This document shows, in pieces, positions 1-4,030 of a DNA stretch of 64,000 nt. Under the pieces are notes generated by a model that was not told where the DNA came from, did not search any database, and worked only from the letters and a program-made list of their open reading frames with translations. The stretch comes from Candidatus Woesebacteria bacterium UBA5941 (GTDB taxonomy: Bacteria; Patescibacteriota; Microgenomatia; UBA8517): positions 19,612-83,611 of the forward strand of contig DJCV01000011.1 in the NCBI GenBank assembly GCA_002430735.1. The letters are read 5' to 3'. Each line of letters begins with the position of its first letter. Position 1 is the first letter of the stretch. The translations under genes were made by a program, and so were the position numbers.

Positions 1-29
1 AGGAAGAAGTGTTAGCGTCGTTTCCATAC

Positions 30-1085
30 TCACAGCTTAATATCTATCCGTTCGTGAACATACTTTCTCGTGTCGTTATGACTAATAATATGTTTGACCG
101 CGACAGTTCCAACAACCCCTCCCAAGAGCGCTGCAGTTCCCAACTGTGACCATGATATCAACTCTCTATTTAGCACCTTTTCAACTGACTTGGTAACACG
201 CGGATGGACGTGCTCCTCTCCACCAATAATATCTTCAAGGATAAGTGCACCAATATCTGAAAGGCTCTTAATATTTGAAAGCTTCTCATTCCAGTACTGT
301 TCAGGTTTACCGAAAAACTGGTCATACCCTAAGTCATATCGCTCAATATGGAGAATTACTCCATCCGCATTATCAGTAATCATAAGAACAGGGACTTTGT
401 ATTTTTTGGCAATTTTGCGAATTTCCATCTTTAGACCGATGTTATCAATTTCTTCAAAAATCATCGTGATTTTTTTTGCTTCAAGCATTTCACTTAGCCC
501 TTCGATTGAAATACCGTGGTCGAGCACATGCACTGTTAAAAATGGATTGTTCTCATACATTCTCCGGGCGGCTATTACTGATTTGTTTACACCAACCAGT
601 GGCAACCCCGCAGGAAGACGATTCAAATTGGTTGTATCAAGTTCATCATAGTCTGCAATGGTAATCTCGCGAGAAATCCCCGACTGCACCAACGTGTATG
701 CAATGTTGCTCCCGACGCTTAATCCAAAAACAGCAATTTTTTCATCGTAAAGCCTTTTTTGTTCCTCTGGGGTTACGAGATCTCTGTTTCTATTTGTAAT
801 GAGTTCGAAGTATGGATCACTGGTAACTGACTTTACGCAACGGTTAAGCCAGGGATAGTAAATATAAACAAATTCATTCTTTTTTCTGTTTTTATATTCT
901 TCAAAATGAGCGCTACTGTATACAGCCTCTTTATCACTCCCAATAAATTCTCCATTCTCGATAAAGTACAACTCTTTCAATTGCCGTTCAAACACATCGA
1001 GCAATTCAACTGATTTGTGTGCTTTGAGAAACGCTTCTCCAGACTCCGGAGTAAATACTGTTGGTGTGTGATCCATTGTATTCAT
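30..1085 (-). CDS. E1/ThiF/MoeB-like adenylyltransferase family protein with ~110-aa N-terminal extension
   Basis: Rossmann segment IAVFGLSVGSNIAYTLVQSGISREITIADYDELDTTNLNR matches the ThiF/E1 nucleotide-binding block and SNLNRQ-like motif. A later IFEEIDNIGLKMEIRKIAKKYKVPVLM segment matches the ThiF core. The Gly loop is degenerate (GLSVGS instead of GxGxxG), and the only Cys is in the N-terminal extension. Confidence 0.6.
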   Translation of the reverse strand: MNTMDHTPTVFTPESGEAFLKAHKSVELLDVFERQLKELYFIENGEFIGSDKEAVYSSAHFEEYKNRKKNEFVYIYYPWLNRCVKSVTSDPYFELITNRNRDLVTPEEQKRLYDEKIAVFGLSVGSNIAYTLVQSGISREITIADYDELDTTNLNRLPAGLPLVGVNKSVIAARRMYENNPFLTVHVLDHGISIEGLSEMLEAKKITMIFEEIDNIGLKMEIRKIAKKYKVPVLMITDNADGVILHIERYDLGYDQFFGKPEQYWNEKLSNIKSLSDIGALILEDIIGGEEHVHPRVTKSVEKVLNRELISWSQLGTAALLGGVVGTVAVKHIISHNDTRKYVHERIDIKL

Positions 1086-1096
1086 TTTTTTGTATT

Positions 1097-1151
1097 AAAA
1101 AAACCCGCTTTTTGCGGGGTGACGAGTAGAGAGCTTACAGAAGCTCTTCTG
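1097..1151 (-). terminator. tandem hairpins downstream of the pilin gene, with a rho-independent terminator (stem cccgc/gcggg followed by 7 U on the minus strand)
   Basis: Stem 1104-1108/1114-1118 with a TTTTT loop is followed on the minus strand by the run of A at 1097-1103 (U-run in the RNA). A second 8-bp hairpin at 1129-1148 (gagagctt/aagctctt) has its T-run on the plus strand. Confidence 0.55.
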
Positions 1152-1265: not shown

Positions 1266-1790
1266 TTACCGTGTTACTGAAATAACACCTGATAATTCTC
1301 CACTGGCTGTCGCAATTAAGCGTCCGTTCGTATCACGATACACTGTGTATCCCGTATTTGCAGCAGTTCCTGTTGAAGGATCCACTGGAATTGCAGCGAT
1401 ATATGTTGGAACAACAAGTTCTTGTTGACCTACAGCAGCTTCAATTTCTCCGGCTGCGCCTAAGTTAAAGCAGCTTCCTCCAGTTCCAATACATGTTGGA
1501 GTTGACGGGAAACTGTTAACGTTCGCATCTGTGTTGGTATCTGGTAAGTTACCATTGTGTTCAGCTGCGAATTGATAAATTGCGTTTGTGATACCAAGAA
1601 GATCAGCACGTCGTTGAGAATCACGAGCTTGTGCAAATTGTCGTCCTGGATTAACAGCAACTAAAACGATCGCTGCTAAAATTCCGATAATACCGATAAC
1701 AACGAGCAATTCGATAAGGGTGAATCCTTCGCGTACTGAAGTTTTTCGCATCAAGGTGAGACCAGCTATTTTTTTATTTTTCATGTTCAT
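1266..1790 (-). CDS. type IV pilin (prepilin-type N-terminal cleavage/methylation domain), candidate major pilin
   Basis: N-terminus ...VREG|FTLIELLVVIGIIGILAAI is a class III signal peptide with Gly-1, Phe+1 and Glu+5. The 3' UTR is long and structured and ends in strong terminators. Confidence 0.85.
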   Translation of the reverse strand: MNMKNKKIAGLTLMRKTSVREGFTLIELLVVIGIIGILAAIVLVAVNPGRQFAQARDSQRRADLLGITNAIYQFAAEHNGNLPDTNTDANVNSFPSTPTCIGTGGSCFNLGAAGEIEAAVGQQELVVPTYIAAIPVDPSTGTAANTGYTVYRDTNGRLIATASGELSGVISVTR

Positions 1791-2096: not shown

Positions 2097-2633
2097 CTAA
2101 AAATTCGTGTATAAAAATCCTCCGTATTTCACTGTCACCGTACTGTCTACTTCATTCGTGGTGAGTGCGAATGTCACGGGACGAATAAATACTTTTAGTT
2201 TGCTTACTGCGATTAATGTATCGCTAATGGCTTGCTTTGTTCCAGTCAACGTGATTAAAAGGGGCAATCCCTTTAAACCAGCCTTGTCGGAAATTTCTGC
2301 TGTTACCGGAAACTCATAATTCGTAAGTACTCCCGATTTTTTAATTTCATCAAGACTAGAAATTACTGAAATAACAGTATTATCTCCCGATAACGTACTG
2401 GTGATTTGATTTATTTTTTCACCGTTTTTCTCAAGTTCCGACTGTAAGACCGCACTATCAACGGCTGCCTCAGATGCTTGAATTTCAGTTGACAGGGTTT
2501 TTACTTCTTGTGCTTTAACTGGCAATTGGCGAAGCAATATAAGTATACCCATGCAAATAACGAGATTTACTACATTCACGGCAATCACTTTAAATAAAAC
2601 GGGTGAGATTTTTTTCTTTTCGGTAATTTCCAT
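2097..2633 (-). CDS. PilO-like type IV pilus assembly protein
   Basis: An N-terminal TM helix is followed by a coiled-coil and periplasmic domain. Its position immediately downstream of PilM-PilN fits PilO. Confidence 0.55.
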   Translation of the reverse strand: MEITEKKKISPVLFKVIAVNVVNLVICMGILILLRQLPVKAQEVKTLSTEIQASEAAVDSAVLQSELEKNGEKINQITSTLSGDNTVISVISSLDEIKKSGVLTNYEFPVTAEISDKAGLKGLPLLITLTGTKQAISDTLIAVSKLKVFIRPVTFALTTNEVDSTVTVKYGGFLYTNF

Positions 2634-2635
2634 AA

Positions 2636-4030
2636 TTACTTTTTATAATCCATCTGCATACTAAATGGGATACTGGCTTCAGTTAACAAACTTGAAAGCG
2701 GGACTGTGACTTTAGAAAATTCAGGCGCATCTTCAAGTACTTGTTTCAGTTTTAAAAGATCTGCTCGTGATTCAGCGATACCGCTAATACTTACCTTACC
2801 TGTTTCGATATTTACATCATAAGCGAGAATTGTTGTTGTCGGGATTCGTTTTTGTTCAATACTATTTACAGGAACTTGCGGGTACGAGATTGCTTTTATA
2901 ACTGCGTCTAATTTATTCGTCGCGGCGTTCACCTTCGTGATTTCGCTCGATACTGCCGTTAAAGAAGGTTGCCCTGATACGACTTCCTTCGGCGTATTTT
3001 TCTTCGACTGCAATGCAAGTGCTTCTTGAGACAGCAATGTGTATGTCCCAAGAGCCGCAAGGAAGCACATAAACACAACGACAGACCATACAAGCGTTAA
3101 CGTCCAAAGCCTGAAATCTCTCATCTGATTTTTGTAGTGAACAACCCACGCAGGAGGAAGCAAGTTGATCGAGTATGCATTTGAAGGCTCTTCTGGATTA
3201 ATCGATTGTTGAGAGATCGCAATAATATAGTGCTGTATATCACTTTCGCTTAGCCCTGTTACTGAGAGTTTTAAACCTTCAATGGGAAGATTCAATTTAA
3301 CTTGTATTGCGTTCAAAAACTCTTTGGTGAGGCCATTTCCACAAACAGCAACCTTTGCAATGTCATTTTTATTAAAGCGTGCGAGAATCTGTGCGAGATT
3401 CGCAACAACAAGCTGGTCATCTGCATTATTAATAACACTCGTGGCGAGCACTTTTTTCCCCGAGATAACGGTTGCAACAATCGTTCCTTTAGATCGATAT
3501 ACGACGAGCTTCCCTTCGGCATTTCCTTCCGCAATCCGCTCCAAACAAAGTGACGTCGTCTCCACAAATACCGGAAGCAATCCGGCAGCATCAACGGCAC
3601 CCACGAATCCAGAGAGGTCACCTACTTCAATTGCAACGAGTAACACTTCGTAAGAGTCACTTTTCTCGCCAATAATTTTCCAATCAAGCACCATTTCCGA
3701 TCCTTCATGAGGCAAGAATTCTCTTGATTGCCAGCGGACTGCTTCATCAAGTTCAGATAATGAAACACGAGGAAGTACGAGTGTTTTCATAAAAGTAGAA
3801 AACTCAGGGAGAATTAAGCCTATTGCTTTTTCTTTCAACCGCTCCTTTTTCCAAATCATTTTCAAAAGGCCAGCAAACTCTCCCGGCTTTTCTACTTTTC
3901 CTTGAGAGACGATGCCGTCAGGTATTTCGTAAGTAGCGGCTTTGACGACATGCTTTCCCTCCTTAGAAGTCTTTACAATCTTTAGCTTATGATTACTAAC
4001 TGATACAGAAACAAATGATCGACGATACAT
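2636..4030 (-). CDS. PilM-PilN fusion protein (actin-like ATPase PilM fused to bitopic PilN)
   Basis: The N-terminal region is actin/FtsA-like (KIVKTSKEG...VLLVAIEVGDLSGFVGAVDAAGLLPV). It continues into a TM helix (WTLTLVWSVVVFMCFLAALGTY) and a PilN-like periplasmic tail. Confidence 0.7.
   Translation of the reverse strand: MYRRSFVSVSVSNHKLKIVKTSKEGKHVVKAATYEIPDGIVSQGKVEKPGEFAGLLKMIWKKERLKEKAIGLILPEFSTFMKTLVLPRVSLSELDEAVRWQSREFLPHEGSEMVLDWKIIGEKSDSYEVLLVAIEVGDLSGFVGAVDAAGLLPVFVETTSLCLERIAEGNAEGKLVVYRSKGTIVATVISGKKVLATSVINNADDQLVVANLAQILARFNKNDIAKVAVCGNGLTKEFLNAIQVKLNLPIEGLKLSVTGLSESDIQHYIIAISQQSINPEEPSNAYSINLLPPAWVVHYKNQMRDFRLWTLTLVWSVVVFMCFLAALGTYTLLSQEALALQSKKNTPKEVVSGQPSLTAVSSEITKVNAATNKLDAVIKAISYPQVPVNSIEQKRIPTTTILAYDVNIETGKVSISGIAESRADLLKLKQVLEDAPEFSKVTVPLSSLLTEASIPFSMQMDYKK

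Follow-up and report, generated by a model that had tools for sequence, protein, structure and literature searches.

We analysed a 64,000-nucleotide stretch of DNA (the window) from Candidatus Woesebacteria bacterium UBA5941, a member of the Patescibacteriota (GenBank assembly GCA_002430735.1, contig DJCV01000011.1, positions 19,612 to 83,611), and focused on a minus-strand gene at its left edge, 30..1085, which encodes a ThiF-like protein of 351 aa (plus stop codon) that we call the cyclase after the function proposed for it below. The coding sequence was defined from the list of open reading frames (ORFs), matches to Pfam ThiF and to NCBIfam, and homologues. At E <= 1e-3 the protein had 414 homologues, and 119 non-identical ones among the matches listed shared 47-64% identity with it and were 327-389 aa long. 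Searched against 1.84 billion representatives, a profile of the family matched 998 clusters (50% identity level) at E <= 1e-30. Given these 414 homologues and 998 profile clusters, the ORF clearly reads as a genuine gene and not as a chance ORF. JGI labels found on homologues include "molybdopterin/thiamine biosynthesis adenylyltransferase" or "tRNA A37 threonylcarbamoyladenosine dehydratase." An antisense ORF of 185 aa (94..651, plus strand) lies inside the gene; it looks like a shadow ORF cast by the conserved gene on the opposite strand and was not counted as a gene.

The genes that follow the cyclase lie mostly outside the window. Four public contigs encode exactly this cyclase, and three of them match the window with 0 mismatches over 11,085 bases; this identity over the overlapping bases allowed us to use them to extend the window leftwards. 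An earlier note made from the window's letters had placed the partners of the protein beyond coordinate 1, and the next gene does start in the window and run off its edge. Reading away from the cyclase, the order of genes is an amino-acid dehydrogenase of the ELFV (Glu/Leu/Phe/Val) type, a PaaK-like ligase, a seven-transmembrane (7TM) histidine kinase and then a class I aminoacyl-tRNA synthetase. Adjacent genes of the operon either overlap by 4 nt or stand a few tens of bases apart, a packing so tight that it leaves no room for a gene for a peptide or a ubiquitin-like protein (Ubl). Only the start of the dehydrogenase gene lies in the window (1..33, minus strand), either at a GTG at 33..31, which overlaps the cyclase stop codon by 4 nt (GTGA), or at an ATG at 27..25, 2 nt after the stop. 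On the other side of the cyclase, the gap at 1086-1265 holds one same-strand ORF of 23 aa and, at 1104..1118 (minus strand), a terminator-like hairpin, CCCGC-AAAAA-GCGGG followed by a T run, which was detected by pattern scan as a consensus match only. This hairpin stands between a pilin gene and the start of the cyclase, suggesting that a separate transcription unit begins with the cyclase.

The dehydrogenase (361-363 aa) matched Pfam ELFV_dehydrog_N and ELFV_dehydrog, and its best NCBIfam match was Trp_DH_ScyB at 307 bits; among structures in the PDB it matched leucine dehydrogenase (LeuDH, 3vpx, E 2e-75) and tryptophan dehydrogenase (TrpDH, 5b37, E 7e-69). The catalytic Lys/Lys/Asp residues were kept in 38/38 dehydrogenases of the Candidate Phyla Radiation (CPR), that is, the gene of this operon (L002 11053..12144) and 37 orthologues. 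Two pocket positions were Gly and Leu in all 38 and in TrpDH 5b37, and Ala and Val in four LeuDH structures. The Gly/Leu pair is presumably a mark of aromatic specificity, an assumption we carry over from the engineering of phenylalanine dehydrogenase (PheDH) and LeuDH; the PheDH G124/L307 rule reportedly goes back to Seah, Engel and colleagues. We could confirm neither point in the literature. The position equivalent to LeuDH L40 was Phe in 32 of the 38 dehydrogenases and Val in 6, including that of the window's genome. The Gly/Leu pair hints at a Phe/Trp-type pocket and an aromatic substrate. The ligase (486-499 aa) is a divergent PaaK-like adenylate-forming enzyme with a TSGSTGTP motif; PaaK models scored 49-56 bits against it, and it matched PaaK 4r1l at E 1.6e-6. 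The kinase (L002 13673..15277) contains HisKA_7TM, HisKA and HATPase_c domains, and the synthetase after it has the MetRS-type Pfam domains tRNA-synt_1g and Anticodon_3. No response regulator gene stands beside the kinase in the window's genome, where the MetRS-type synthetase gene comes next. A single-domain receiver protein directly follows the kinase in four related loci (L054, 11676..13676; L005; L034; L049).

The best curated match of the cyclase was NCBIfam NF005901, "Rv1355c family protein" (201.7 bits, E 1.8e-59), with residues 20-337 aligned to profile positions 30-324 of 722. Other curated models scored far lower against their cut-offs: ThiF 53.4 bits (cut-off, 159), TcdA (NF011696) 44.7 bits (304) and MoeB 29.9 bits (266). 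We also compared the protein with an Rv1355c-family protein encoded on a Rhodococcus plasmid, which scored 839.8 bits, above the Rv1355c cut-off of 476, and BLASTP aligned the two over 262 aa (E 4e-36). On these similarities, assignment of the cyclase to the clade of oxazolone synthetases (TrzS/Rv1355c, TyzB and OxzB) is well supported, and the protein very probably works like the cyclase half of an Rv1355c protein. By its score and its architecture, both of which fall short of the full-length family, it does not qualify as a TrzS equivalog. Rv1355c, now TrzS, uses ATP to cyclize N-acyl-tryptophan to an oxazolone, which it then desaturates with O2 (PMC12856293). TyzB (Rv2338c) and OxzB carry out the same ATP-dependent cyclization on N-acyl-Tyr/Phe (PMC10404671; bioRxiv 10.1101/2020.06.11.147165). 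Oxazolone synthesis by ThiF-like cyclases was discovered between 2020 and 2025, in proteobacteria and in mycolic-acid actinobacteria; the known pathways always include an N-acyltransferase and a flavin oxidase, and their physiological role is still unknown (PMC12856293).

The earlier note had described an atypical, cysteine-less enzyme of the ThiF/E1 fold with an added N-terminal domain, and this description held. The adenylation core spans residues 89-351 (33..821, minus strand), as delimited by Foldseek against the PDB and by alignment with E. coli ThiF, and Pfam ThiF matched residues 99-234 (E 8e-17), in agreement with the E1/ThiF core that had been proposed. The three motifs quoted from the core were found where they had been placed, with GLSVGS at residues 121-126, ITIADYDELDTTNLNR at residues 141-156 and IFEEIDNIGLKMEIRKIAKKYKVPVLM (IFEEIDN...VPVLM) at residues 209-235. 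Foldseek of the whole protein against the PDB covered the ThiF core only, with matches to AclA (9egb, E 1.7e-12), ThiF (1zud), TcdA (4d7a), PaaA (5ff5) and the SUMO E1. The core lacks Zn-binding and catalytic cysteines, and the cysteine-containing C-terminal segments of ThiF have no counterpart in the alignment. As had been noted, no cysteine follows the adenylation core; the sole cysteine of the protein is C83, in the N-terminal part, and no cysteine is conserved in an alignment of 40 family members.

The ATP site was examined in that 40-member alignment, in a MAFFT alignment with E. coli ThiF (251/251 residues identical to PDB 1zud) and in a wider alignment of 12 sequences from CPR, Streptomyces, Acidimicrobiales, Verrucomicrobia, Nocardia, Rhodococcus and Kitasatospora. 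Residues invariant in the 40 members were G121, S123, G125, S126, N127, R99-N100, D145, D147, N153, N155-R156 and K168, and likewise E212, D214, K219, R223, T237-D238-N239, E248-R-Y-D251 and W312-x-Q-L-G316. The wider alignment kept P78-W79, R99-N100, G121-x-S-V-G125, E212-x-D214, K219, E248-R-x-D251 and W312-x-Q-L invariant, and the motifs common to the CPR, Streptomyces, Nocardia, Rhodococcus and Kitasatospora members are YPW, RNR, G-x-SVG, NLNR, EExD, K219, ER[YF]DL and WxQL. Several of these residues can be matched to ThiF. The nucleotide-binding loop G121-L-S-V-G-S126 (708..725, minus strand) was identified by its invariance and by alignment with G-L-G-G-L-G of ThiF, from which it differs by the deletion of one residue and one Gly-to-Ser change. 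The earlier note had read this loop as a degenerate form of GxGxxG; the sequence it gave was right, but degeneracy is not what we found, given that the loop is invariant in the 40 members and occurs as VGLSVGS in the bona fide Rv1355c-family protein of the Rhodococcus plasmid, which points to a conserved variant and not to decay. N153-L-N-R156 (618..629, minus strand) is an ATP phosphate-binding motif that corresponds to S66-N-L-Q-R70 of ThiF; its invariant N153 and R156 align with N67 and R70. K168 (582..584, minus strand), also invariant, aligns with ThiF K83 and is its phosphate-binding equivalent. In the stretch E212-I-D214 ... K219 (429..452, minus strand), where E212, D214 and K219 are invariant, D214 aligns with ThiF D127 and K219 with R132. 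The motif T97-N-R99-N100 (786..797, minus strand), whose R99 and N100 are invariant in both family alignments, holds the probable arginine finger, R99, as the presumed equivalent of ThiF Arg11. ThiF R70, K83, D127 and R132 are among the residues that contact ATP or the substrate C terminus (PMC12596934). The counterpart of the conserved ThiF Asp in TrzS is Asp217, and the D217A substitution in TrzS of M. smegmatis abolishes cyclase activity (PMC12856293). As judged from these alignments, the ThiF-type ATP site of the cyclase is complete and conserved, and the catalytic cysteine is absent.

The N-terminal domain comprises residues 1-88 (822..1085, minus strand), as delimited by AlphaFold2, conservation and the starts of profile matches. 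In an AlphaFold2 model built on the 40-sequence alignment (mean predicted local distance difference test score [pLDDT], 90.2; predicted template modeling score, 0.89), a folded alpha/beta domain at residues 9-87 precedes the ThiF core, with pLDDT above 90 over residues 11-90; modeled alone, the domain folded equally well (pLDDT 88.7). Its topology is strand-helix-strand, four helices in all, and then a beta hairpin, with the invariant P78-W79. The proposed N-terminal extension thus exists as a folded domain, although at about 88 residues it is somewhat smaller than the 110 aa first given for it. Foldseek of the domain against the PDB, including the clamps of MccB and PaaA, returned no match (best E = 2). 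The domain is kept from the CPR to the Streptomyces, Rhodococcus and Kitasatospora relatives, and profile matches in fused TrzS-like proteins of about 715-770 aa begin at profile positions 3-20, which makes the domain part of the clade's module. By this distribution, the domain appears specific to the TrzS/Rv1355c clade of oxazolone cyclases and belongs to the same module as the core.

The closest characterized relative is TrzS (Rv1355c, formerly "MoeY"), the N-acyl-tryptazolone synthase of M. tuberculosis and M. smegmatis (Kleetz et al., J Biol Chem 2025, PMC12856293). As in TrzS, the region matched by NF005901 spans the N-terminal domain and the ThiF core, Zn and catalytic cysteines are absent, and the equivalent of the essential Asp is kept. 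TrzS is a fusion of about 715 aa with a flavin-dependent oxidase and has the N-acyltransferase TrzA as its partner, whereas the window protein is the cyclase half alone, at 351 aa. The operons also differ: that of the window has a dehydrogenase and a PaaK-like ligase in place of the acyltransferase, no oxidase in its lineage and a histidine kinase attached, and its host is known from a metagenome-assembled genome (MAG) of Patescibacteria, whereas TrzS comes from actinobacteria. TyzB (Rv2338c, formerly "MoeW"), of the TyzACB tyrazolone pathway (Grigg et al., J Biol Chem 2023, PMC10404671), is likewise a stand-alone ThiF-like cyclase that works with a separate oxidase of the nitroreductase superfamily, as most CPR relatives would, and it cyclizes an N-acyl aromatic amino acid with ATP. 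Compared by description only, TyzB differs in its length (318 aa) and in its partners, which are the acyltransferase TyzA and the oxidase TyzC and not a ligase and a dehydrogenase; it falls in a different subcluster from TrzS in the published similarity network. OxzB of Pseudoalteromonas rubra (de Rond et al., bioRxiv 10.1101/2020.06.11.147165), also compared by description only, follows the same logic of a ThiF-like cyclase with a nitroreductase-type oxidase that acts on a small molecule with ATP, but it is fused, proteobacterial and partnered by the N-acyltransferase OxzA. The closest solved structure is AclA from Tenacibaculum discolor (PDB 9egb/9egc; sequence E 1.6e-7; Foldseek E 1.7e-12; target TM-score 0.76), whose loop GGAGIGS aligns to FGLSVGS of the cyclase. 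AclA is about 265 aa long, is 19% identical and lacks the N-terminal domain; we found no literature on the function of 9egb. The tRNA ct6A dehydratase TcdA/CsdL (PDB 4d7a; sequence E 4e-7) is a ThiF-like enzyme free of Zn cysteines that performs an ATP-dependent cyclodehydration of an N-carbamoyl amino-acid moiety. Unlike the window protein, it acts on tRNA and has no N-terminal domain. To our knowledge, the TrzS/TyzB/OxzB clade is the only ThiF-like clade that acts on small molecules.

Some 40 genomes of Patescibacteria carry this operon. Scanning a single genome for each species yielded 47 loci, in which ORFs were called and clustered and which we counted as 41 distinct loci; nearly all of the 47 came from Patescibacteria MAGs (Paceibacteria, Nomurabacteria, Kaiserbacteria, Woesebacteria and Magasanikbacteria), and three came from Streptomyces. 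Among the loci eligible for each count, the dehydrogenase lay directly downstream of the cyclase in 32/40, the PaaK-like ligase was present in 34/36, the histidine kinase in 26/31 and an oxidase of about 350 aa in 23/34. These four were the only conserved neighbors of the cyclase across loci, and the commonest junction between cyclase and dehydrogenase was a 4-nt overlap of stop and start codons. The oxidase matched the Rv1355c profile at positions 375-713 (183 bits), the Acg family of FMN oxidoreductases (137 bits) and Pfam Nitroreductase; by these matches, it is the other half of TrzS. The lineage whose operon lacks the oxidase comprises the locus of the window's genome (L002), its closest relatives L005, L049 and L034, and the 62%-identical L054 (GCA_040959955.1). 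In a rough, midpoint-rooted neighbor-joining tree that did not include L054, L002, L005, L049, L034 and L024 grouped together at the base. A locus from a divergent CPR lineage (L045, 1..9577; 32% identity) kept all five genes in a changed order, and the class I methyltransferase and alpha/beta hydrolase genes inserted there suggest a tailored product. In the Streptomyces loci, the genes for the PaaK-like ligase, cyclase and oxidase are consecutive.

Natural fusions, which we took from the representative library searched with the cyclase family profile, tie the operon genes together and confirm their grouping. The cyclase is joined to the dehydrogenase and the PaaK-like ligase in one protein of 1242 aa (P0312), to the ligase in another of 863 aa (P0269), whose ligase part is 40% identical to the ligase of this genome (E 1e-137), and to a nitroreductase in a third of 743 aa (P0258). 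Two further fusions bring in other enzymes: an aromatic-amino-acid enzyme with a 4-methylideneimidazole-5-one (MIO) group in P0266 (924 aa), which scored 546.9 bits with the Tyr 2,3-aminomutase model (cut-off, 501), and an alpha/beta hydrolase in P0262 (659 aa).

We propose that the protein is a stand-alone, ATP-dependent, oxazolone-type ThiF-like cyclase that heads a small-molecule operon, a reading that we consider probable, though well short of certain. From homology, catalytic residues, operon and fusions, we infer the following substrate, product and partner roles. The dehydrogenase, which would be NAD(P) dependent, would convert between an aromatic amino acid and the corresponding 2-oxo acid. 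The PaaK-like ligase would adenylate an acid and make an N-acyl amino acid, thereby replacing the TyzA/TrzA/OxzA acyltransferase. The cyclase would then adenylate the carboxylate of this small N-acylated, probably aromatic, amino acid, and attack by the amide oxygen on the acyl-adenylate would close a 5(4H)-oxazolone ring, in a reaction that would involve neither a cysteine thioester nor a protein or peptide as substrate. The oxidase, where present, would introduce an exocyclic double bond. Given that no oxidase lies near the operon in the window's lineage, the product there may stay saturated, as a reactive azlactone, or be oxidized otherwise.

Several points weigh against this proposal. We detected no flavin oxidase in the operon, in the 64-kb window (by tblastn and a hidden Markov model of the CPR oxidase) or in the 10 kb beyond its edge, and no acyltransferase family matched in the operon, a search in which no dedicated TyzA/TrzA model was used; with neither near the gene, two of the three components of the characterized oxazolone pathways are missing or replaced. 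The score of 201.7 bits falls below the Rv1355c equivalog cut-off of 476, which we attribute to the absence of the C-terminal oxidase half (profile positions ~375-713) from a 351-aa protein, and identity to the bona fide TrzS-family protein is only 33%. In the MAFFT alignment R99 lies two residues away from ThiF Arg11, so that their equivalence is our reading of the alignment. The role proposed for the ligase draws solely on gene position and fusions, and the stand-alone CPR cyclases and their PaaK-like partner were assigned from sequence and not by experiment. In addition, ThiF-like enzymes readily acquire new functions (PMC12596934), and the nucleophile and the ring could differ.

In the strongest alternative, an enzyme of the same clade performs the same adenylation, on a small-molecule carboxylate supplied by the dehydrogenase and the ligase, but offers the acyl-adenylate to another nucleophile, giving a non-oxazolone ring, an amide or ester (e.g., a lactam), or an activated acyl donor to be handed on. 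The missing oxidase and acyltransferase would fit such a chemistry, as would the fusion of the module to an alpha/beta hydrolase, to an MIO aminomutase/lyase and to a 257-aa domain of unknown family that adjoins ketoacyl-ACP synthase III, and a review of ThiF-like proteins stresses how diverse their nucleophiles are (PMC12596934). However, a TrzS-type oxidase was kept in 23/34 CPR loci, bona fide TrzS-family proteins have the same active-site motifs, and oxazolone formation is the only chemistry demonstrated for the clade. We therefore regard a different chemistry as a real possibility, but a clearly less likely one than oxazolone formation.

We considered it improbable that the protein is a housekeeping ThiF/MoeB adenylyltransferase for a sulfur carrier, or TcdA. 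The source annotations of the homologues point that way, and TcdA also lacks Zn cysteines and forms an oxazolone-type ring on t6A, a product described as an oxazolone form in the ThiF-like review (PMC12596934). However, the scores with these models are far under the family cut-offs, no cysteine follows the core, and no ThiS, MoaD, thiamine or molybdenum cofactor gene was found within 10 kb; the partners and fusions point instead to small-molecule metabolism. Ordinary thiamine or molybdopterin neighbors, which the earlier note had named as evidence against its own reading, were thus not seen within 10 kb on either side.

That reading had been E1-like activation of a ribosomal peptide or Ubl, by a MccB/PaaA-type clamp or recognition element for ribosomally synthesized and post-translationally modified peptides (RiPPs), as the partner in a thiazole/oxazole-modified microcin system, or as a cysteine-less E1 of antiviral conjugation, and it now appears very improbable. 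It drew on the E1/ThiF fold and the N-terminal add-on, PaaA and MccB are among the structural and sequence matches, and PADLOC gave weak matches, of at most 38.9 bits, to the E1 domain of E1-E2 proteins of the cyclic oligonucleotide-based antiphage signaling system (CBASS). The leftward extension that had been suggested as a check recovered a dehydrogenase, a PaaK-like ligase and a kinase, and no small-peptide, Ubl, E2, JAB or YcaO gene within 10 kb on either side, with the genes abutting. The score for the TrzS family is roughly fivefold that of any other, and the N-terminal domain is shared with TrzS-type enzymes of small-molecule metabolism. The Foldseek search of that domain, which matched nothing in the PDB, lent no support to a clamp or RiPP recognition element. 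Membership in CBASS Cap2, Bil or 6A-MBL systems was tried and rejected, given generic E1-domain matches only (the 6A-MBL cap2_3 model scored 14.4 bits against a cut-off of 320) and no E2, JAB or Ubl partner in the neighborhood. Least credible of all is a catalytically dead ThiF-like scaffold with a decayed GxGxxG loop, which could be argued from the one residue by which GLSVGS is shorter than GLGGLG of ThiF, but the family keeps this loop invariant, a bona fide Rv1355c-family protein has it unchanged, the rest of the ATP-site residues do not vary either, and the TrzS enzymes that have been tested depend on ATP (PMC12856293), even though the likeness of the loop comes from the Rhodococcus family member and not from those enzymes.

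Under the oxazolone reading, the cyclase clade is already known, and it is the operon context in the CPR that is previously undescribed. A published similarity-network analysis described the neighbors of the clade only as an oxidase and/or an acyltransferase. Our searches found no literature that links oxazolones, or this gene set, to Patescibacteria, none that combines PaaK, ThiF and nitroreductase, and, judged by titles and abstracts, nothing relevant on Patescibacteria and ThiF. Patescibacteria, whose genomes measure about 1 Mb, are commonly portrayed as having hardly any biosynthesis. The oxazolone cyclase module, including its GLSVGS loop and N-terminal domain, is here conserved within a different operon, with a possible second route to the N-acyl amino-acid precursor, and about 1,000 protein clusters that are now annotated as thiamine/molybdopterin or tRNA enzymes would gain a testable function. 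That a 7TM kinase stays so consistently linked to the operon suggests sensing of the product or of a related cue, and the operon may represent a candidate pair of small molecule and sensor in bacteria whose host interactions are poorly understood. A bolder version, which we regard as doubtful, would make the operon a self-contained chemical-signaling cassette in which the dehydrogenase, ligase and cyclase, joined by the oxidase in most lineages, turn an aromatic amino acid into a reactive molecule of the oxazolone class, to be sensed by the co-inherited 7TM kinase; the receiver protein of close relatives and the type IV pilus genes beside the operon in this lineage belong to the same picture. 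If so, the Candidate Phyla Radiation would have its first described small-molecule signal pathway, and bacterial oxazolones would gain a physiological role, which the literature still lists as unknown.

Relatives outside the CPR showed further arrangements. One Streptomyces locus (L047, 2599..7934; L046 and L048 are alike) encodes the PaaK-like ligase, a cyclase with a GLSVGM loop and an Acg-type oxidase, with no dehydrogenase or kinase, and upstream of it lies a large ORF on the minus strand, in which a P450-like heme-binding motif was recognized by eye only. We found no known product for a cluster of this type. On plasmid NZ_CP108248.1 of Kitasatospora sp. NBC_00070 (L053, 5194..8078), a 616-aa protein carries the cyclase module after an extra N-terminal region of 257 aa that no Pfam or NCBIfam model matched, and a ketoacyl-ACP synthase III gene comes next. 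On plasmid NZ_CP046101.1 of Rhodococcus sp. AQ5-07 (L052, 2872..6965), a full-length Rv1355c/TrzS homologue adjoins a GGDEF-domain gene, a neighbor that echoes the cyclic di-GMP (c-di-GMP) gene neighborhood reported for trzAS in M. tuberculosis. A putative TrzA beside this Rhodococcus homologue had no family match and was dropped as an acyltransferase probe. TrzS-type genes were present on nine annotated actinobacterial plasmids in PLSDB. Several MAGs with the Paceibacteria-type operon (L005, L010, L034, L045, L009, L024 and others) were deposited as "uncultured Gammaproteobacteria" or "Candidatus Saccharibacteria," which probably misstates their taxonomy.

Directly upstream of the cyclase, the window contains a type IV pilus cluster (1266..~11000). 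It contains pilin (1266..1790, minus strand), PilO-like (2097..2633, minus strand) and PilM (2636..4030, minus strand) genes, among them one for a prepilin with a GFTLIELLVV motif, and, further on, T2SSE and T2SSF. Patescibacteria that live as episymbionts are thought to use type IV pili for contact with their hosts. The same pilus genes adjoin the operon in the oxidase-less relatives L005, L034 and L054.

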